A stretch of DNA of 20,000 bases, from the IMG/VR virus record IMGVR_UViG_3300042542_005136; one strand, written 5' to 3'. Of this stretch, positions 1 through 17,547 are shown in pieces. Origin of the DNA: an uncultured virus (IMG/VR IMGVR_UViG_3300042542_005136). Lineage: Duplodnaviria; Heunggongvirae; Uroviricota; Caudoviricetes. Below the pieces are notes generated by a model. It saw only the letters and a program-made list of their open reading frames with translations, did not search any database and was not told the origin of the DNA. Within the stretch, counting starts at the first letter, position 1, and the number at the start of each line of letters is the position of its first letter. The translations under genes were made by a program, and so were the position numbers.

Positions 1-303
1 GTCGGGAGCTTTGTCAAGGTGGTGCTCAATATCTTCCCCATCGAAATGATCTTCCAGCACACCGTGCATCCAGGTGCCACGATTGGCTGCAAGGCGAGTG
101 CGGCGATTGGCTTCATCAGCTCCCACACGCTTGCGCCAGTTAATCAGGGCCATCACCTTTGCCACAGGAGCCATGGCCGAAAGGAAGGTAGTGACGGAAG
201 GCAGGACGATACCCTCCGGCACATTGGGAAACCCTTCGTTGATGTAGTGGCGTTTGCCGTTGAGGCTGATGCGCTTCGGCTCAAACTGCTCAAACGAAGG
301 CAC
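1..303 (-). CDS. PD-(D/E)XK (Cas4/MGME1-like) phage exonuclease, N-terminal part; runs off the window start
   Basis: Not in the ORF track. Manual translation from GTG 303 (TTG 315 possible): MPSFEQFEPKRISLNGKRHY...LPSVTTFLS...NWRKRVGADEANRRTRLAANRGTWMHGVLE. PSVTT / WRKRVG / RGTxxH is the typical N-terminus of this family; it lies downstream of an annealing protein. Confidence 0.85.
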   Translation of the reverse strand, partial: MPSFEQFEPKRISLNGKRHYINEGFPNVPEGIVLPSVTTFLSAMAPVAKVMALINWRKRVGADEANRRTRLAANRGTWMHGVLEDHFDGEDIEHHLDKAPD

Positions 304-343
304 GGTGGCTGCCAAACAAAGGTCTAGACAAGCCACTGTACCG

Positions 344-475
344 TCAACGACTAGGAATGCAATAGCCGCCAGAGCTGTAGTAGCCAAGCGGGCAGGAGCC
401 GTTTTTGATGATGGGCTGGTTGCAAGCTGCAGCAGTGATGGGCAAAAAGCAGAAGAAAATGAGAACGATTTTCAT
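344..475 (-). CDS. Small secreted Cys-rich protein (43 aa)
   Basis: MKIVLIFFCFLPITAAACNQPIIKNGSCPLGYYSSGGYCIPSR: signal peptide then GSCPxGYYSSGxYC; ATGA overlap with the upstream gene. Confidence 0.7.
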   Translation of the reverse strand: MKIVLIFFCFLPITAAACNQPIIKNGSCPLGYYSSGGYCIPSR

Positions 476-726
476 GGTCGGGGAAACGAAAGACTTACTT
501 TGGGGTGGTCAATGATCGCGCCAGTGTCACGGTCCCAAGTGGTGCCGCAGTCTGGGCATTGATAGGCATAGCCTTTGTCCGTCTCCCATGACGACAGGAG
601 AATCACGCGGCTGAACCATTTGGAGCCGCCAAATAAATGACGGCTTTCTTCTGGAATCGGCTGGTCGTGCCAGAGACTGCCGCATTCAGGGCAATGTTGC
701 AGCTCATCAAACCGCATAATGTTCAT
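472..726 (-). CDS. Zn-ribbon protein
   Basis: CPECG...CPDCG pairs; start ATG 726 or 717. Confidence 0.75.
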   Translation of the reverse strand: MNIMRFDELQHCPECGSLWHDQPIPEESRHLFGGSKWFSRVILLSSWETDKGYAYQCPDCGTTWDRDTGAIIDHPKVSLSFPRP

Positions 727-798
727 CGAGAGGGTTGCCATTTTCGTCGCAGGCAATCAGGCCCGCAAAGCTTCTTGCGAGCCTGGCTGCTGCTCTAT

Positions 799-1767
799 CT
801 ACTTTTTTCCCTCCACATATGCCTTGACCCATTCAATGGCAGCATCAGCTCCATCAAGACAAGCGGCACGCAGGCAATCAATTTCTTTTGCCATTGCCAC
901 CTTTGTAATCTTGATGCCTTCTTCCTTTGTCCATGAAGTGACCATGGTGCTGATGACATTGGCAAACATTTCAGCATCCTGAATGTCTTCGCCTTTTGCC
1001 AAGCCAAGGGCCTGCAGCGCATTCTTGCCCAGCATCAGGCTTGCACGCTCATCAGCTTTGCCGAGAGGATTAGCTTTGCAGAAGCTAAGAAGCGCTCCTT
1101 TGCCATCGAACTCACTGGCTCCATTAGAGGCAGAAGTCCCATCGCCTCCAGATGCTGCAGCAGGCTCTGCAGCCTTTTGTTCCTTCGCGACAGTCCGCGC
1201 TTCAGGCTTCGGGCTTTCCTGTTGGAGCGGGAGCCTGGACGTTGTTTCTTCATCGGCTTTAGGAATGTCTTCACCTGCATAAAGCTTGAGGCCAAGGCCG
1301 GTGAAGGTGGCAATGCACTTAACACTGGCACGTTGGATGTTGTCGCTCACTTGACGAGCATCCAGCTCCTTCACTGCGTTGTGCTTGTTGTCCATCACGG
1401 GGAACACCAGCGCAGGAGTGCGTCTAATGCCGTCCGTCAAATAAGGACGCAGCAGCCAGCAGCCATCTCGGCCAAATACTGGCCAGCCAGCTTCCTTTTC
1501 TTCAAAGGCAACGAACACGCCAGGAAATTGTTCGTTGAGGTAGCGGAAGGCAAAAGGCCAAGACAGGTAGGACAGCCCTTTGTAGTTCTTCTCAACGTGA
1601 TCGCCAATGGGAAGCTCATAAGCTTTCTTAAAGGCTTCAGGAGAAATGTCAAGGGGCGAAAAATGGCCAAGCATGCGCTCAGTGAGCAAGGCTTCGTTCA
1701 CGGCAGTCACGGGAAGAGTCATGGAAGCAAAACTAGCAGGGTCGTAGGAGAGGAAGGAGTGGTTCAT
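799..1767 (-). CDS. Sak3/DUF1071-like single-strand annealing (recombination) protein
   Basis: HVEK..KGLSYLSWPFA, PVMDNKHNAV, IQRASVKCIA..GLGLKLYAGEDIP motifs; Ala/Gly-rich linker then helical C-terminal domain. Confidence 0.85.
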   Translation of the reverse strand: MNHSFLSYDPASFASMTLPVTAVNEALLTERMLGHFSPLDISPEAFKKAYELPIGDHVEKNYKGLSYLSWPFAFRYLNEQFPGVFVAFEEKEAGWPVFGRDGCWLLRPYLTDGIRRTPALVFPVMDNKHNAVKELDARQVSDNIQRASVKCIATFTGLGLKLYAGEDIPKADEETTSRLPLQQESPKPEARTVAKEQKAAEPAAASGGDGTSASNGASEFDGKGALLSFCKANPLGKADERASLMLGKNALQALGLAKGEDIQDAEMFANVISTMVTSWTKEEGIKITKVAMAKEIDCLRAACLDGADAAIEWVKAYVEGKK

Positions 1768-2643: not shown

Positions 2644-4626
2644 ATGGCCTTTAACATCCTCGACTTCCTCGAGCAACTCGAGCCCAGCAACGAGAAGGGC
2701 AAGTTCGTCTGCCCCGCATGCGGCGGCAACGACTTCACGGTGAACAAGACCACAGGCGGTTACAACTGCTGGCACGACCCCAGCTCCGCTCATAGGGCCG
2801 ACATCCGCAATGTGCTGGCTCCAATGGTGCGATGGGAAAAGCCCTGCAGGGAGACTGGCTCGCATCACTTCCCCTACTACAACAAACAGCGCGAAGAAAT
2901 CGTGCGGGTGCATCGAGACGATTCGAGCGGCTCAAAACGCATCTGGCAAGAATTTCCCACCATCCCATCGGACGCCACCAACCAGAAGGCGCTCCTGCAA
3001 GAGATGAAAGCCGGCATTTTGCCGTACAAATATTCGGAAGCCGTTGACGAGAGCCAGAAGACTGGCCTGCCCATCGTTGTCGTTGAAGGTGAACTCACCT
3101 GCGAAGCCTGCTGGGCTATTGGCCTGCCTGCTGTCACCTTCCTTGGCGGATCAAAGCAATATCGCACCAACGGCGACTACAGCCAGCTTTTCAAGGGACA
3201 GAAGATTGTCCTGGCTCCCGACAGGGATGAACAAGGCGTGGCCTTCATGGCAGAAATCGCCAATGACAATCCTGGAGCATCATGGCTGTATGCCGATCCG
3301 CGTTCGTGGGAATGGGACAATCTCCCGCCCGGAAATGGCTATGACTTAGCTGATTACATTGAAGAAGGCGCCACGAAAGATGAACTGCTTTCTTCCATTG
3401 TCACCAAGAGCCGCCACAAGAATCAAGACGGCAAGCCTTCTTACGAGGAGATTATCTCCACGGTAGAGAATTTCGTTGGCCTTTATGCCAATGATGCTCG
3501 CATTGCTTACGAAACCAGCTCATGGTTGGAGCAGCGTGCAGTGAAGATGAATCAGCAAAACATTGACAAGATCATTGAAGAAGCAAAAGGACGCATATAT
3601 GGCAGGGAAGAAATTGAAACCATTGATGCTCTGACCATTGCCAACTCCGACAAAGCTCGCGACTGGCTGATTGCTGGCATCATGCCGCTTGGCACTGTGA
3701 TGCTACTAGCAGCTTCTGGCGGCACCGGCAAGAGTACTGTTGCCTACAACTGGGCGCTGCACATTGCCCTTGGCACGCCATGGTCTGGACGGCGCTGCAT
3801 GAAAGGCAAGAGCCTTATCATTCAAAGCGACGAGCCTTTGGTGGATACCAGCGAAAAGCTTGGTGTGATCGGCTATGAAGATGCTGGCTTGGATCCTGGC
3901 ACCATTGCATTCTGGGAAACTTGGCGCTTTGCTCACATGCGACAGTTGGAAGATTACGTTCGTAAGCATCGCCCATTGTTTATTACCATTGACTCCCTCA
4001 CCGCGTGCCTTGCGGGCATGGACGTGGATCTAATTAAAAGTAATGCTGGCGATGTTATTTATGGTCTGCGTGATATTGCCAACACTTACAAATGTTCCAT
4101 TCTCATTCTTCACCATTTGAACAAAAGCGGAGGACTTCGTGACTCAACAAGCTTTGTCGATAATGTTAGCGAAGTGGTGAAACTTACCAAGCCTGAAAAT
4201 AATTTTGACGGCAGTCAGTTTCATCTTGAATGGCTTAAGAGCAGGAGTGGTCTCACTGGCAAGCATATGCTTCGCCGCGATGCATTGAACTATGGCTGGG
4301 AATATGCTGGCCCTCTTGGCGGAAGCTTGGAAGAGCTGGATCGCGTGGTGAACACCATCAACATGCGTAAGCACGAACGCTTCACCAAACAACAAGCGGC
4401 AGCAATGGCTGGAGCATTTGACATTGCTGGCACGAGCAAAATGCTGGAAGTGGCCAGAAGGCAAGGCTTGATCACCAGCAGCTTTGAGAATGGTCCCAAT
4501 GGAGAAAAACAGAGAGTGTATCATTCTTGGGAATACCAAGAGCCCGACCTTGATTTCGAGAGCAATCACTCTCCCGCTGCTCCCGCAAAAGAAAGCGACA
4601 GCTCCCTTGATGACGAATTCTTTTAA
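2644..4626 (+). CDS. DNA primase-helicase (Zn finger + TOPRIM + AAA_25/RepA-like helicase)
   Basis: CPACGG..C.H Zn finger; VVVEGE and PDRDEQG TOPRIM motifs; Walker A ASGGTGKST; Walker B FITIDSL; LHHLNK motif; acidic C-tail. Confidence 0.9.
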   Translation: MAFNILDFLEQLEPSNEKGKFVCPACGGNDFTVNKTTGGYNCWHDPSSAHRADIRNVLAPMVRWEKPCRETGSHHFPYYNKQREEIVRVHRDDSSGSKRIWQEFPTIPSDATNQKALLQEMKAGILPYKYSEAVDESQKTGLPIVVVEGELTCEACWAIGLPAVTFLGGSKQYRTNGDYSQLFKGQKIVLAPDRDEQGVAFMAEIANDNPGASWLYADPRSWEWDNLPPGNGYDLADYIEEGATKDELLSSIVTKSRHKNQDGKPSYEEIISTVENFVGLYANDARIAYETSSWLEQRAVKMNQQNIDKIIEEAKGRIYGREEIETIDALTIANSDKARDWLIAGIMPLGTVMLLAASGGTGKSTVAYNWALHIALGTPWSGRRCMKGKSLIIQSDEPLVDTSEKLGVIGYEDAGLDPGTIAFWETWRFAHMRQLEDYVRKHRPLFITIDSLTACLAGMDVDLIKSNAGDVIYGLRDIANTYKCSILILHHLNKSGGLRDSTSFVDNVSEVVKLTKPENNFDGSQFHLEWLKSRSGLTGKHMLRRDALNYGWEYAGPLGGSLEELDRVVNTINMRKHERFTKQQAAAMAGAFDIAGTSKMLEVARRQGLITSSFENGPNGEKQRVYHSWEYQEPDLDFESNHSPAAPAKESDSSLDDEFF

Positions 4627-4956: not shown

Positions 4957-5238
4957 TCAACAAAATGGTTTTTCACAAGTATGTTGGTTACTGGGTTTCA
5001 AGCTCGACGGCTTGGGGCGGCGGGCGGCGCGGAGAGCTGGATACTTTCGCTCACTCATTACTTTGCTAGCTAACCACTCTAAGCACGCCTCCAATTCTTG
5101 GTCTGCACCAGCTTGGAAACCATTCCTCCAGGCACAGTCCAGCACATAATCAACGTTTTCTCGTTCGTTGAGAATGTCGTCCTCCCACTGCTTAAATTCC
5201 TCTTGCGGCGGGCTAATCGGGTGTTGCTGGTCAGTCAC
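4957..5238 (-). CDS. MTDQQHP-family hypothetical protein, possibly C-terminally truncated
   Basis: QHPISPP...GADQELEAC.EWL...LRAARRPKPSSLK; paralog of 5900-6244. Confidence 0.75.
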   Translation of the reverse strand: MTDQQHPISPPQEEFKQWEDDILNERENVDYVLDCAWRNGFQAGADQELEACLEWLASKVMSERKYPALRAARRPKPSSLKPSNQHTCEKPFC

Positions 5239-5419
5239 TGGTTTGGTTCAGATAGTCGGTTTGTGAAATTGTTGGCAATGGATCACCAAGTGCTTCAAGG
5301 GCGCAGATCATGCACCAGTGCCCTTCGTGGCCTTTGATGTTGCTTGCGATGGTATGCGGGTGTGTTCCATGCTTGGGGCAGATCACGCCAAAGCCGGCCC
5401 ATGTGTAGAAATCAGTCAT
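5231..5419 (-). CDS. Small Cys/His metal-binding protein
   Basis: CPKHG...HWCMIC; overlaps both neighbours. Confidence 0.7.
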   Translation of the reverse strand: MTDFYTWAGFGVICPKHGTHPHTIASNIKGHEGHWCMICALEALGDPLPTISQTDYLNQTSD

Positions 5420-5907
5420 TGATTTCCCCAGCGACCGAGAACGGCGCGAGCGTATTCCAGTGCAACGGTGTTAAGCACAACGCGAAAGAGACCCGGCTCG
5501 ACTTGGCCGCCAGTGGCTGTGGAGTACACACTGGAAACAGCCGCAAACTCATCCCGCATGGTTTCGGGCATCAGTTCCAGCAGTTCCTCATCTGTTGGCA
5601 TCTGCGGCTCGGGCTGGTCGAGATAGGCACGAGCTTCGGCCAGCAAATCAAGTTCATCCTTTTCGTACCAGCACTCCCATTTCATGAGCATTTCTAGCGC
5701 ATCAATGAATCGCCGGATCAAATCTCTGGGCTTGGCATCACATCGGTTTGTTGCGGTGTTCTGCTTGAGAAACTCCACCATCAAGCGGTGAGCTTCACCA
5801 GCATCGGCAATAAACTGGCCCCGATAGTGAAAGCCTTCTTTGTCGAGGCGGATGATCTCTTCGGTGGGCGTGTTGAGTGTGATGTTGCTGATTGGTTGGT
5901 CAGTCAT
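5416..5907 (-). CDS. Hypothetical protein, apparently two modules
   Basis: ATG 5907; IIRLDKEGFHYRGQ module then ARAYLDQPEP..PTDEEL...ARAVLGRWG module. Confidence 0.75.
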   Translation of the reverse strand: MTDQPISNITLNTPTEEIIRLDKEGFHYRGQFIADAGEAHRLMVEFLKQNTATNRCDAKPRDLIRRFIDALEMLMKWECWYEKDELDLLAEARAYLDQPEPQMPTDEELLELMPETMRDEFAAVSSVYSTATGGQVEPGLFRVVLNTVALEYARAVLGRWGNQ

Positions 5908-6244
5908 CGAGTTGCTCCAGGGCGCGGCGGATGGTGTTGTAAGTGTTCTGTTTGTCGCCGTGATCTGGATTGCCATAGACGTAAGCATCCAAGGCGGCGT
6001 AAGCCTGTTCTTTCAAGCTCGGTGGCTTGGGGCGGCGGTAATTATAAAACTCAATTACATCTTCTTCTTCCCACGCAGCGCACTGCTTAAGGTAATTTCC
6101 ACAAGCTAGTAACTCTTTATCGGCGCCCCACTGGGTAGCTTCAATCAGTAGTTCATTGATTCCTTTGTTGTAATCATCATGCTGCTCAAACCAAAGCTGC
6201 AATAATTCTGACGGTGGGATGATTGGATGTTGTTGGTCAGTCAT
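5900..6244 (-). CDS. MTDQQHP-family hypothetical protein
   Basis: QHPIIPP..WGADKELLAC...RRPKPPSLKEQA...TIRRALEQL. Confidence 0.8.
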   Translation of the reverse strand: MTDQQHPIIPPSELLQLWFEQHDDYNKGINELLIEATQWGADKELLACGNYLKQCAAWEEEDVIEFYNYRRPKPPSLKEQAYAALDAYVYGNPDHGDKQNTYNTIRRALEQLDD

Positions 6245-8020: not shown

Positions 8021-8038
8021 TTTTACTGCCCATTGACC

Positions 8039-8788
8039 ATGCCCCTTCCTGAAATTGACTTCCCGGACAAGGAGCAGCAATTGAAATATGGCGTGAAGGT
8101 GCTTCTGGAAGCTGGAATGACGCCTCAGCAAATTGAGCACATTCGCGACAGAGTGGGAGCAGGTCCGGGCAAGATTCCCTACACCAAAGAACTCACTGGA
8201 TTGCGCCGGTATATGGTGCAGGAGCTTTTGGCGGCAAGTTTAAGCAACAGGCAAATTGCCGACATCTTGAAGCTAAGCAAAGAAACTGTTAGCGCCGATC
8301 GTCATCACAACCGCAACTTGTGGACTGCTGAAATCCTTAAGAGCCAAGACACTTGGCGGGCACGGCTAATCAAAGAACAAGGCGAACTTAAAGACAAAGC
8401 CCTCGAAAGCTTTGAACACAGCAAGCGCAAAAAAGTCACCACTTACAAGGAAGGGCCTGACGGCCCTGGCGAAACCATTGTGCGTATGGAAGAAAGTGCT
8501 GGCGAAAGCGGCTTCCTTGGCATTGCCCGTAGCTGTCTGGAGCAGCAGGCAAAGCTGATTGGCCTGTTCGATGTGAAACCACAAACGGAAGAGAAGAGCG
8601 GCTACAAAGCATTCCTTGATAATTTAAGCAAGGAAGTTCGCAAAATAAAAGAAGCTGAAAGCAATAGTGAAGTTAGAGCCACTGCCATTGATGCTGAGGC
8701 TTATTTCGACGAACAAGGAGAGCCCACTGGCCCCAGCAAGCCTTTGCTATTCGCGAATAGCGAACAGGACGATGGAGAGGAAAGTTAA
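8039..8788 (+). CDS. HTH protein, terminase small subunit-like
   Basis: HTH LSNRQIADILKLSKETVSADR; helical middle; AGESGFL...CLEQQAKLIGLFD resembles TerS-like C-terminal helices. Confidence 0.55.
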   Translation: MPLPEIDFPDKEQQLKYGVKVLLEAGMTPQQIEHIRDRVGAGPGKIPYTKELTGLRRYMVQELLAASLSNRQIADILKLSKETVSADRHHNRNLWTAEILKSQDTWRARLIKEQGELKDKALESFEHSKRKKVTTYKEGPDGPGETIVRMEESAGESGFLGIARSCLEQQAKLIGLFDVKPQTEEKSGYKAFLDNLSKEVRKIKEAESNSEVRATAIDAEAYFDEQGEPTGPSKPLLFANSEQDDGEES

Positions 8789-10753: not shown

Positions 10754-11110
10754 ATGCTTTTTCGTTTTCTTCTTTCAGCCTCCGTTGCCTTAGGCGCTCT
10801 GGTGCCTGCTGCTGCGGAGGCTAAGTCTCGCTGCGGCGAGGCCAGCTTCTACGGGCACGGTGACGGCTTTGCAGGCCAGACAATGGCTAATGGTCAGCCA
10901 ATGAACCCGCGAGCCATGATCACTGCCCACCCATCGCTTCCGCTCGGCACCCGCTTGAGAGTGGTGCGCAATGGTCGGAGCGTAATCGTCAAGGTGACTG
11001 ATAGAGGCCCTTGGTACGGTGGTAGGATTCTCGACCTGAGCTATGGCGCTTTTGCTCGCATCGCTCACCCTGGTAGCGGCCTGGCAACGGTCTGTTATCA
11101 GGTGGTGTAG
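10754..11110 (+). CDS. rlpA: RlpA-family lytic transglycosylase (DPBB domain) with signal peptide
   Basis: ASFYG, TMANG, TAHPSLPLGTRLRV, VKVTDRGP, RILDLSYGAF motifs. Confidence 0.9.
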   Translation: MLFRFLLSASVALGALVPAAAEAKSRCGEASFYGHGDGFAGQTMANGQPMNPRAMITAHPSLPLGTRLRVVRNGRSVIVKVTDRGPWYGGRILDLSYGAFARIAHPGSGLATVCYQVV

Positions 11111-12292: not shown

Positions 12293-12583
12293 ATGAAATA
12301 TATTTCTCGCGAAGAACTATTGGCCGTAGGCGCTTCACTCTCTTGGGCCGATGCCACTGTTTTCACTGGCAAGCTTTACGATCAGGCATTTTCTCAAAGC
12401 TGCCGCAATGGCAGCAGCGCCGGAGGCTTTGCTTCTGGAGAGTTCAATGGGAAAGAAGTAAGCTGCTGGATTGTTCCTCGGTGCATGGGCCGTGGTCGCT
12501 GGAGCAGCACCACGCTTTGGAAAGTCAATGGTAAGCGAGTGGCGCAGAAGAAGCTGATCGACGCTGTTTGTGAAGCTTTGTAA
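12293..12583 (+). CDS. Hypothetical protein
   Basis: 96 aa, ends WKVNGKRVAQKKL... Confidence 0.7.
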   Translation: MKYISREELLAVGASLSWADATVFTGKLYDQAFSQSCRNGSSAGGFASGEFNGKEVSCWIVPRCMGRGRWSSTTLWKVNGKRVAQKKLIDAVCEAL

Positions 12584-14718: not shown

Positions 14719-14894
14719 TTGACGATGATTCACTTTCGCATTTCGTTGAGGACTGGTGGAGAGGCATGGTGCTTTACGATCCTGACACCAAAGACTATGT
14801 GGACAATATCTTCAAAAACATTCACAAACAGCATTTTGTTGATTTCTTGCGGGATGCCTTAGCTGAATTTGGTGATCATCATGATTCTCATTGA
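14715..14894 (+). CDS. Hypothetical protein (59 aa)
   Basis: GGAG RBS and ATGA overlap; MIDDDSLSHFVEDWWRG... Confidence 0.65.
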   Translation: MIDDDSLSHFVEDWWRGMVLYDPDTKDYVDNIFKNIHKQHFVDFLRDALAEFGDHHDSH

Positions 14895-15036
14895 TTTCTT
14901 CACGGAAGCCTGCTGCAAAGGCACTGAACTTGTGGAAGGCTGGTACTGGTATGAAGACGATGGAGAAGAAGTGGGAGGGCCGTATAGAGACGAAGAAGCC
15001 GCTATTGAAGCGGCTCAGGAGCAGAAAGGCTGGTGA
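14881..15036 (+). CDS. Small acidic protein (51 aa)
   Basis: MILIDFFTEACCKGTELVEGWYWYEDDGEEVGGPYRDEEAAIEAAQEQKGW. Confidence 0.65.
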   Translation: MILIDFFTEACCKGTELVEGWYWYEDDGEEVGGPYRDEEAAIEAAQEQKGW

Positions 15037-15115
15037 TTCTGCGTTAGCATGGCAAAACGACGCAGGACTGGCATCCCACGTCGTTTCTAACCACTACCAA
15101 AAGAGAGGTTTGGCC

Positions 15116-15742
15116 ATGGCTACAGACAAGCATAGCAGTGTGCCTGAAGGATTCAAGGAGATCCCTGGGTATGGCGGGCGCTATTTTATTAATGAAAACG
15201 GTGATGTTTGGAGCATTGCAATAGCAAAATTGATGAGTCAGCAACGGGACGAGAAGCATCCCTATCCATGGCTTTTATTGCGCTGCAATGATGGCAAAAA
15301 TCGAACCATAGCTGTGCATCGCATGATGGGGCGCACGTGGCTTGAATTACCTCCCGGACCCATTGGCTCAAAAAAAGGACAGTATTGTATTAACCATAAA
15401 GATGGTGATAAATGTAACAATAATGTGGCAAACTTGGAATGGGTGACTTGTGAAGAAAACGTTCGACATGCCTGGACAAATGGCCTCAACCAATCAATAG
15501 GGGAGAATTCCCCCGTCGCAAAATTAAACTCTATTGAAGTTCGTCAAATACGAAAAGACTTTATTGATGGCAAATCGTTATCCAGCCTTGCTAGTGAGCA
15601 CAACATGAGCATACAGGGAATTCATGACATTTGTCGATTCAGGAGGTGGAAGACTCAGGATGCAGACTTGCTTGTTGCCATGAAACAGCGATCGTCTTCA
15701 ATCTTTATTGATAGGCTAATCGAAAGGGAATTAAACTCTTAA
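15116..15742 (+). CDS. NUMOD4-HNH homing endonuclease
   Basis: FKEIPGYGGRYFINENGDVWS (NUMOD4); VHR; INHKDGDKCNNNVANLEWVT (HNH); GENSPVAKL plus C-terminal HTH; GAGG RBS before ATG 15116. Confidence 0.9.
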   Translation: MATDKHSSVPEGFKEIPGYGGRYFINENGDVWSIAIAKLMSQQRDEKHPYPWLLLRCNDGKNRTIAVHRMMGRTWLELPPGPIGSKKGQYCINHKDGDKCNNNVANLEWVTCEENVRHAWTNGLNQSIGENSPVAKLNSIEVRQIRKDFIDGKSLSSLASEHNMSIQGIHDICRFRRWKTQDADLLVAMKQRSSSIFIDRLIERELNS

Positions 15743-16635: not shown

Positions 16636-17547
16636 ATGCAAGCTACCATTAACTCTCGCGCCAAAACCCCCACTGATCTTAACGCCATTCAGAAACAATA
16701 TAAAATTAATTTCAAAACTCTACTCTCCACCAATCCCAAAACCGAAAAATCTAAAGTCCAAACCTACATTCTACATCTAGCACCCGCTGATATATCAGGC
16801 GTTAACGTTTGCACAGGCGCTGGTAACTGTAAAAAGATTTGCTTGCATTTTGCCGGGAACCCTGTCTACATGACGGCAAAGCAAGCAGCCCGCATTCGAC
16901 GCACCTTAGCTTATTCTGCCAATCCTAGAGAGTTTGCTAAGTTGATTTTGCTAGCTATTCTTGACAAAATTAACAAGCATAATGGCGAACCGTTGGCAGT
17001 CAGACTGAACGGCACCTCTGACATAGCTTGGGAGAATGTAGACTTTATCGTCACGCCTGAGTTTGCTACATTTTGCCGGGTTAAGTTTGGGGCGATCCTA
17101 CCACTAGGACAGCGTAACCTTTTCGAAATTTTTAATTTCATGCGAGACAATACGGGCGAAAATGTCACTTTTTATGATTACACTAAGATTAAGCGTAACT
17201 GGACTGAATGCAAGCGCTTAGGCTATCACCTTACTGTTAGCTACGATGGCGCAGACAATATTGCTAATCATAAGATCGTAGCTAGCGCGTTAGCTGCAGG
17301 CGTTAACGTTGCTGCAGCCTTTGCAATTAAAAAGGGACGGCCTTTGCCTCCCGTTGCATACATCGCGAACCGTAGTTTCAAAGTGGTTGATGGCGATTTG
17401 ACGGACTATCGGCCGGCCGATCCTAGCGGCTACCATATCGTAGGGTTGCGGTTTAAGCTCCCCCACGGCATCGCATACAGCGCAGCAGAGCGCGATGCAT
17501 TCTGTCTTGACGGCCATGGAATGACGGCTGCCCTTAAGCCTGTCTGA
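16636..17547 (+). CDS. GP88-family (phage gene product 88, radical-SAM-like) protein
   Basis: NPKTEKS, LHLAPA, C-x5-C-x3-C, RLNGTSDIAWE, FYDYTK, YHLTVS, DGDLTDYR..DP, IVGLRFK motifs. Confidence 0.8.
   Translation: MQATINSRAKTPTDLNAIQKQYKINFKTLLSTNPKTEKSKVQTYILHLAPADISGVNVCTGAGNCKKICLHFAGNPVYMTAKQAARIRRTLAYSANPREFAKLILLAILDKINKHNGEPLAVRLNGTSDIAWENVDFIVTPEFATFCRVKFGAILPLGQRNLFEIFNFMRDNTGENVTFYDYTKIKRNWTECKRLGYHLTVSYDGADNIANHKIVASALAAGVNVAAAFAIKKGRPLPPVAYIANRSFKVVDGDLTDYRPADPSGYHIVGLRFKLPHGIAYSAAERDAFCLDGHGMTAALKPV

Follow-up and report, generated by a model that had tools for sequence, protein, structure and literature searches.

The window analysed here, a stretch of 20,000 nucleotides, comes from a lake phage that is a relative of Synechococcus phage S-CBS4. 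The metagenome runs containing this stretch are for the most part of lake or freshwater origin and, by extension from S-CBS4, the host of the phage is presumably cyanobacterial. Four matches were found in non-cyanobacterial metagenomic genome bins labelled Verrucomicrobia or Gammaproteobacteria, and these are probably mis-binned phage contigs. The Sak gene lies upstream of an exonuclease gene and opposite a primase-helicase gene, an arrangement also found in S-CBS4. The features of the locus are the following:

1..387, minus strand: exonuclease gene, truncated by the edge of the window (phrog_298, E 4.1e-19)
472..717, minus strand: gene for a small Zn-ribbon protein, next after Sak, a variable neighbour that begins within the end of the tail
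707..802, minus strand: -1 frame tail, 31 codons (802-710) and a stop (709-707), with frame-specific selection
749..793, minus strand: predicted 3' stimulatory hairpin, inner stem 785-774 with 769-758 and outer helix from 793 (minimum free energy fold, covariation)
752..802, minus strand: tau-like core of the tail, [VIL]DxxAxR[LF]AxxFxGx[IV][VIA] (column counts, PSSM, hhalign, complex model)
799..801, minus strand: 0-frame stop codon TAG, read from the sequence
799..1767, minus strand: gene of a Sak-family single-strand annealing protein, 0 frame, 322 aa (PF06378, E 1.4e-17; phrog_8492, E 8.8e-45)
802..808, minus strand: A_AAA_AAG slippery heptamer, immediately before the stop (sequence and conservation)
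805..811, minus strand: overlapping G_GGA_AAA heptamer, found in 19 of 122 distinct gene ends
802..1110, minus strand: helical C-terminal domain, about residues 220-322, following a low-confidence linker (AlphaFold2 pLDDT about 82-94)
1246..1632, minus strand: Rad52-like annealing domain, residues 46-174 (Pfam match and structure model)
2644..4626, plus strand: phage primase-helicase, Toprim-like and AAA_25 (Pfam and PHROG matches), divergent from the Sak operon

The exonuclease is likely to be the recombination partner of Sak, and the Zn-ribbon reading frame likely starts at the ATG at 717. The Sak product shares 58% identity with S-CBS4 gp079 along its full length. SSAP_Sak is its sole Pfam match, and AAA+ clamp-loader domains are absent. 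Its structure model matches the Sak of phage 80alpha (8pq8) with a Z of 10.9 and an rmsd of 2.9 over 116 aligned residues; for the C-terminal domain, searches with the whole model gave no clear fold match (best Z 6.9). Ring formation is a known trait of the Sak (Rad52-like) family, and both this property and the annealing activity are attributed to the window protein by analogy with its family. Positions 504-886 are also covered by a DNA contig of another run (X2, record 8), with zero differences and zero gaps, so that the frameshift signals described below are not an assembly error. In the RNA runs X17 and X18, contigs map elsewhere in the gene only and are uninformative on expression at the site.

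Several other genes of the window can be described. The primase-helicase (2644-4626, plus strand) ends in an acidic C-terminal tip with two terminal phenylalanines; tips of this kind are reminiscent of the SSB-type C-terminal binding tips. Three small genes on the minus strand, at 4957-5238, 5416-5988 and 5900-6244, have N-terminal segments that are alike, which suggests local duplication or shuffling, and two of them match phrog_32006. On the plus strand, the genes at 8033-8788 (phrog_645, labelled RNase E, with an HTH-like match as well) and 10754-11110 (phrog_7930, lipoprotein precursor) bear labels that also occur in the S-CBS4 annotation. An HNH endonuclease gene (phrog_59) is found at 14891-15742 and a 303-aa protein matching phrog_1617 (function not assigned), with a cysteine cluster at about residues 57-68, is encoded at 16636-17547, both on the plus strand. 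The plus strand also carries, at 12449-12455, a G_GGA_AAG located one codon ahead of a stop and followed by a fold of -21.3 kcal/mol.

The original prediction concerned the 3' end of the Sak gene, read as GAG GGA AAA AAG TAG; this end is confirmed and closes a 322-aa reading frame at 1767-799. Two overlapping heptamers had been proposed there, and both are indeed present, at 811-805 and 808-802, while conservation is limited to the one ending in AAG; the overlapping G_GGA_AAA at 811-805 is probably incidental. The homologue set consisted of 194 loci and the window, or 195 in total, of which 16 are cut too near the stop; the remaining 179 reduce to 122 distinct 3' ends. In 121 of these, an A_AAA_AAG (53) or a G_GGA_AAG (68) ends at the last or second-last codon, against a background of 31 in-frame XXX_AAAG heptamers at 29,758 internal codon positions of the same genes. 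G_GGA_AAG is also the slip site of the lambda gpG/gpGT genes. The single exception (L111, around position 2370) leaves the family sequence of Sak at residue 301 and lacks the signals, and is either a chimeric contig or a rearrangement. A later scan with a distant member as query returned 80 loci, 33 of them already known, and 36 new distinct ends. A_AAA_AAG lies within the final two codons of 34 of these; the remaining two (L455 and L477) have the 0-frame stop shifted by seven codons into the hairpin, with slip site, hairpin and tail unchanged. Overall, 157 of the 158 distinct 3' ends have one of the two heptamers. In a phylogeny of 58 proteins, from which L026 was excluded as too short, the heptamer class switches eight times between A_AAA_AAG and G_GGA_AAG, and at least four of these switches are forced by well-supported branches. 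Both heptamers are reported as shift-prone in E. coli, and the shiftiness of A_AAG is discussed alongside the presence of a single lysine tRNA, in the part of PMC5009743 that was available. The tRNA-Lys(UUU) pattern was detected in 40 of 41 genomes of the Cyanobiaceae family, and the CUU pattern in 3 of 41.

A hairpin had been predicted downstream of the slip site. Its inner stem, 785-775 with 768-758, is present and gains a twelfth pair in the minimum free energy fold. The outer helix, expected 8 nt past the heptamer, is found at that spacing in the same fold (793-787 with 756-749). The fold of the window site reaches -28.9 kcal/mol (z -2.3; 4 of 200 shuffles equally good). The hairpin statistics were computed on the 60 nt following the heptamer for 59 loci, the set left after thinning at 88% identity. 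The median z is -3.1 against dinucleotide shuffles (below -2 in 46 of 59 loci) and -2.7 against synonymous recodings that keep the tail peptide (below -2 in 47 of 59); about 6-7 of the 59 have no unusual fold in these first 60 nt. Among 121 loci, the hairpin occupies one main register in 60, the register of the window in 34 and others in 27. Changes on both sides were counted at 8 of 14 pairs in the main register (30 sequences) and at 4 of 11 pairs, with 21 cells, in that of the window (14 sequences), numbers that are inflated since the register classes were picked by pairing. The covariation scores exceed 500 of 500 shuffles in both registers; in the register of the window, the pair-count measures did not beat the shuffles (239 and 245 of 500). 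The same tail peptide is encoded on different stems, so that structure and peptide are selected separately. In one locus (L024, after position 2933), eight extra codons separate the slip site from the tau-like motif; its hairpin is displaced downstream, and motif and frame are retained. Upstream, a Shine-Dalgarno-like GGAGG is located 10 nt before the slip site in 16 of 59 loci, and the G_GGA_AAG class has a synonymous bias toward the codons GTG (28 of 31) and GAG (17 of 21) compared with gene-wide values of 0.37 and 0.35, these counts coming from related sequences. The window copy has no such element at a 9-14 nt spacing and shows only AAGG 13 nt upstream.

As originally described, the -1 frame of the window is open for 31 codons and stops a few bases inside the Zn-ribbon reading frame. 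It is open for 22-43 codons in all of the 122 distinct ends. Stops were counted over codons 1-21 in 120 ends, L111 and L024 (the one with the 8-codon insertion) being left out, and the -1 frame has none (0/120). Read-through in the 0 frame and a +1 frame were considered and rejected, with stops in 67/120 and 98/120 ends respectively; as for the antisense frames, all three are broken in part of the set. Over codons 1-22, the tail has a pN/pS of 0.51 when all pairs are taken and of 0.41 in close pairs, as against 1.0-1.4 in the other two frames, the pairs being non-independent in both cases. Over codons 15-22, mostly beyond the stem, it is 0.64 for all pairs and 0.33 for close pairs. The tail is under purifying selection as a protein. 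Its stop overlaps the ATG of the next gene as ATGA in 15 of 58 loci, though these neighbours are unrelated. In S-CBS4, the tail is encoded but unannotated; in the same genome (L030, 5015-5280), an unannotated ORF of 87 codons begins 13 nt before the end of the tail, and the record annotates a short gene on the opposite strand at this site. No natural in-frame fusion of Sak and tail was found among the matches listed (120 of 697 homologous proteins), an absence that is weak as evidence. A search for longer proteins produced a single tail-carrying one, P0121, which has no similarity to Sak and looks like a chimeric call. All members retain a 0-frame stop at the slip site or close by, and no fusion was found, so that both isoforms seem to be needed. 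Heptamer, hairpin and -1 peptide, for which a conservation check had been suggested, are kept in homologues down to about 50% protein identity. Their conservation supports the reading of the site as a candidate programmed -1 frameshift of the bacterial dnaX/IS3 type, and such a shift very probably occurs at the 3' end of Sak.

The tail also resembles, on sequence comparison, the C-terminal motif of cyanobacterial DnaX/tau. The tests of this likeness were post hoc relative to the hypothesis. The DnaX set started from 63 loci, reduced to 59 by removing four open-ended ones, and 58 of these were anchored on the conserved FxG near the end. A PSSM was built from 56 DnaX C-termini, two misaligned rows having been dropped. 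Among the 21,494 six-frame positions of the window, the tail scores highest with this PSSM, by a narrow margin (9.15 vs 8.89); the tail is also the top-ranked site in 98 of 121 phage loci (50 of 59 after thinning). A reverse PSSM made from the tails has the DnaX motif as its best site in 41 of 59 cases; the misses are mostly divergent motifs, with one wrong ORF and one misalignment. In hhalign, 50 tails against DnaX gave a probability of 93.2 and an E of 3e-7 over 25 columns, with a DnaX side of 39 rows hand-chosen as having a typical motif. The key columns of tail and DnaX agree position by position, and some tails have FNG, FKG and GEIV/GQIV like DnaX. The best-domain HMM scores are low: of five DnaX proteins, four score 1.4-4.8 bits and one scores -1.7. 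The tail profile gave 32 matches in 1.84 billion proteins, namely tails called as short ORFs and long repeat-like proteins, and no match of DnaX type was recognised among them (12 were read, and the remaining 20 were assessed from their length and from repeated matching). When five cyanobacterial genomes were searched with the tail profile at E<=10, the matches did not include the DnaX motif; in the opposite direction, five phage genomes gave no match to the DnaX profile. The tail had no significant match in Pfam or in PDB sequences. The tailed Sak appears to be a mimic of the C-terminus of DnaX/tau and is not a DnaX.

In the host, the partner of tau is the alpha subunit of Pol III (DnaE). The tail (710-811, 50-row alignment) was therefore modelled with the last 205 residues of a DnaE (25 rows) taken from a stand-in Cyanobiaceae genome. 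The complex score is 0.79, compared with 0.01 for the best of three controls; the benchmark mark is reached by 116 of 157 solved pairs and 2 of 215 mismatched pairs, counts that are only roughly valid with alignments of one's own. The model runs agree in at least 93% of contacts, and the pLDDT of the partner is at least 83. The tail residues touching alpha in the model are those that the tail has in common with DnaX. On the alpha side, contacts 135, 162 and 171 align by HMMER with L1098, Y1119 and L1128 of E. coli alpha, which were mutated to break tau binding according to the available part of PMC11869525. The PDB entries 5fkv and 4iqj contain related alpha chains in solved alpha-tau complexes, so that the pass of the model may be a matter of memory and shows likeness only. 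As a prediction of the model, it appears likely that the tail binds host Pol III alpha on its C-terminal domain, to which tau also binds.

It is rather unlikely that the frameshift is real and the tail binds another partner, such as the phage exonuclease or primase-helicase, the host SSB or the C-terminal domain of Sak itself, its likeness to tau being due to chance among short amphipathic helices that end in FxG. The weak HMM scores, the lack of a match at library scale and the shortness of the motif fit this explanation, as does the cooperation of Sak proteins with a cognate SSB reported in the accessible text of PMC5499656. It sits poorly with the position-by-position match of the key columns to DnaX, with the DnaX-like variants of some tails, and with a model that places the tail on residues aligned to the tau-binding positions of E. 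coli.

Capture of the host polymerase would answer a need of this phage. Five near-complete relatives (92-100% complete) and the S-CBS4 annotation were searched for a polymerase. No match to PolA, PolB or PolC/Pol III alpha was obtained in 5/5 relatives, and none is annotated among the 105 genes of S-CBS4; a very divergent polymerase may still be compatible with this search. There was likewise no match to an SSB (PF00436) in 5/5 relatives. The phage repertoire includes its own primase-helicase, exonuclease and annealase. Having no detected polymerase, the phage must borrow that of the host.

On this basis, it appears fairly probable that a minority Sak isoform, carrying a frameshifted tail that mimics tau, captures host Pol III. 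Most ribosomes would terminate at the TAG at 801-799 and produce the 322-aa annealase. Some would pause at the hairpin 8 nt downstream, slip by -1 on A_AAA_AAG with two tRNA-Lys(UUU), bypass the stop and add 31 residues. This tail, copying the C-terminal motif of host tau (DnaX), would bind the tau-binding C-terminal domain of DnaE. Tailed subunits would then join Sak oligomers, giving each of them a few polymerase handles, and the frameshift rate would fix their proportion. The oligomers could in this way bring the host replicase to phage DNA, either at annealed recombination intermediates or at the primase-helicase fork. We infer both the mixed oligomers and a role in recruitment rather than inhibition. 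The more specific proposal, that tau-mimic tails on a set fraction of Sak let the annealing ring pass paired 3' ends to the captured Pol III, has slightly better than an even chance of being correct.

The same frameshift and the same binding to alpha could instead make the tail a competitor that displaces tau, uncouples the replisome and halts host replication, freeing polymerase and nucleotides, with low-level synthesis limiting the harm. All the evidence for binding (PSSM, hhalign, model and contact alignment) applies equally to such a role; the available text of PMC1888804 describes low-level expression of the C-terminal domain of E. coli tau as lethal, and that of PMC3561973 reports that SPP1 disables host replication. 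A decoy, however, needs no fusion to an annealase, yet the slip site that joins the two is kept in 157/158 ends, and a phage without a detected polymerase depends on that of its host; this explanation is accordingly held to be improbable, even if recruitment and competition could exist side by side.

Re-initiation at the Sak stop or close to it, which would make the tail a small protein in its own right, is very improbable. An ATG, GTG or TTG is available upstream of the conserved tail in 53 of 122 ends, gene callers list short tail ORFs (P0126-P0146), and in one locus (L152) the TGA stop of Sak creates an ATG (ATGA) in the tail frame; in a few members (L152, P0132, P0139), a free tail peptide could also be made. 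No such start is present in the other 69 of 122, and the first tail codon varies between V, I and L. The 41-aa ORF from ATG 832, put forward originally as the alternative to a frameshift, exists in the window copy and fails on conservation, since 69/122 ends have no start and close homologues (L001-L003, L005, L008 and L014) interrupt it by a stop. Re-initiation also leaves unexplained why two slippery heptamers can replace each other while their synonymous codons stay fixed. It is highly implausible too that transcription slips on the A run, or that the site is a non-coding RNA element such as a processing site or a terminator whose open frame is incidental, for all that the A_AAA_AAG class has a run of six A and a stable hairpin marks the gene boundary: the G_GGA_AAG class (68/122) has just three A, scans of the site gave no terminator-like site at the hairpin and no Rfam match, and codon-level selection acts in one frame, even 3' of the main stem, with the antisense frames all broken.

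If the capture of Pol III by a tailed Sak is true, it would be a new way of taking over the replicase through molecular mimicry, in which an annealase replaces the coupling role of the host clamp loader in a lineage of cyanophages without polymerase. It would widen the scope of phage frameshifting beyond structural genes to those of recombination and replication, link annealing to DNA synthesis and point to a natural ligand of 20 residues for the alpha-tau interface. The tail has been read as intergenic DNA or as a stray small ORF, and its proposed function was therefore missed by annotation. The recoding mechanism itself is of a known kind. In a literature search covering mostly non-subscription journals, no paper turned up that describes a frameshift in Sak or in S-CBS4, or a phage mimic of tau; supplementary catalogues of frameshifts may include the site.

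Among known systems, SPP1 and the MPP-C cyanopodoviruses are similar in having no polymerase of their own, and recruitment of host Pol III has been proposed for them, whereas the accessible part of the same source describes neither a tau mimic nor a frameshift (PMC9860041). How cyanophages without polymerase take over the replicase is raised there as an open question (PMC9860041). The answer offered here would involve one peptide and one host surface, with the cultured S-CBS4 on Synechococcus CB0101 as the system. The Sak proteins of 80alpha and of the lactococcal 936-group phages share the PF06378 domain and the Rad52-like fold; they work with a cognate SSB, whereas the five relatives searched here gave no match to one, and Sak is reported in the available text to be needed for phage replication in S. 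aureus (PMC5499656). In lambda gpG/gpGT, a low-level -1 shift near the stop likewise sets the ratio of a short and an extended product, as described in the part of PMC5009743 that was available. This case and other extensions of structural genes differ from Sak, a recombination/replication gene with an extension of 22-43 residues and a predicted target in a host enzyme.

With E. coli tau, the tail would share an unstructured, amphipathic C-terminal motif that folds on alpha, as described in the accessible text of PMC1888804. The tail copies this last motif only, without the clamp-loader domains, and it showed no match to the folded portion of domain V, a region that increases the affinity in E. 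coli. The E. coli dnaX frameshift signal, like that proposed for Sak, includes a 3' hairpin. It also comprises an A_AAA_AAG site and an internal Shine-Dalgarno sequence 9-14 nt upstream (available part of PMC5009743), and yields two isoforms, with and without the alpha-binding C-terminus (available part of PMC4756838). The carrier of this end is the clamp loader in dnaX and a phage annealase here. The shift removes the alpha-binding end in dnaX, whereas in Sak it would add one: if true, the recoding switch of dnaX operates here in reverse.
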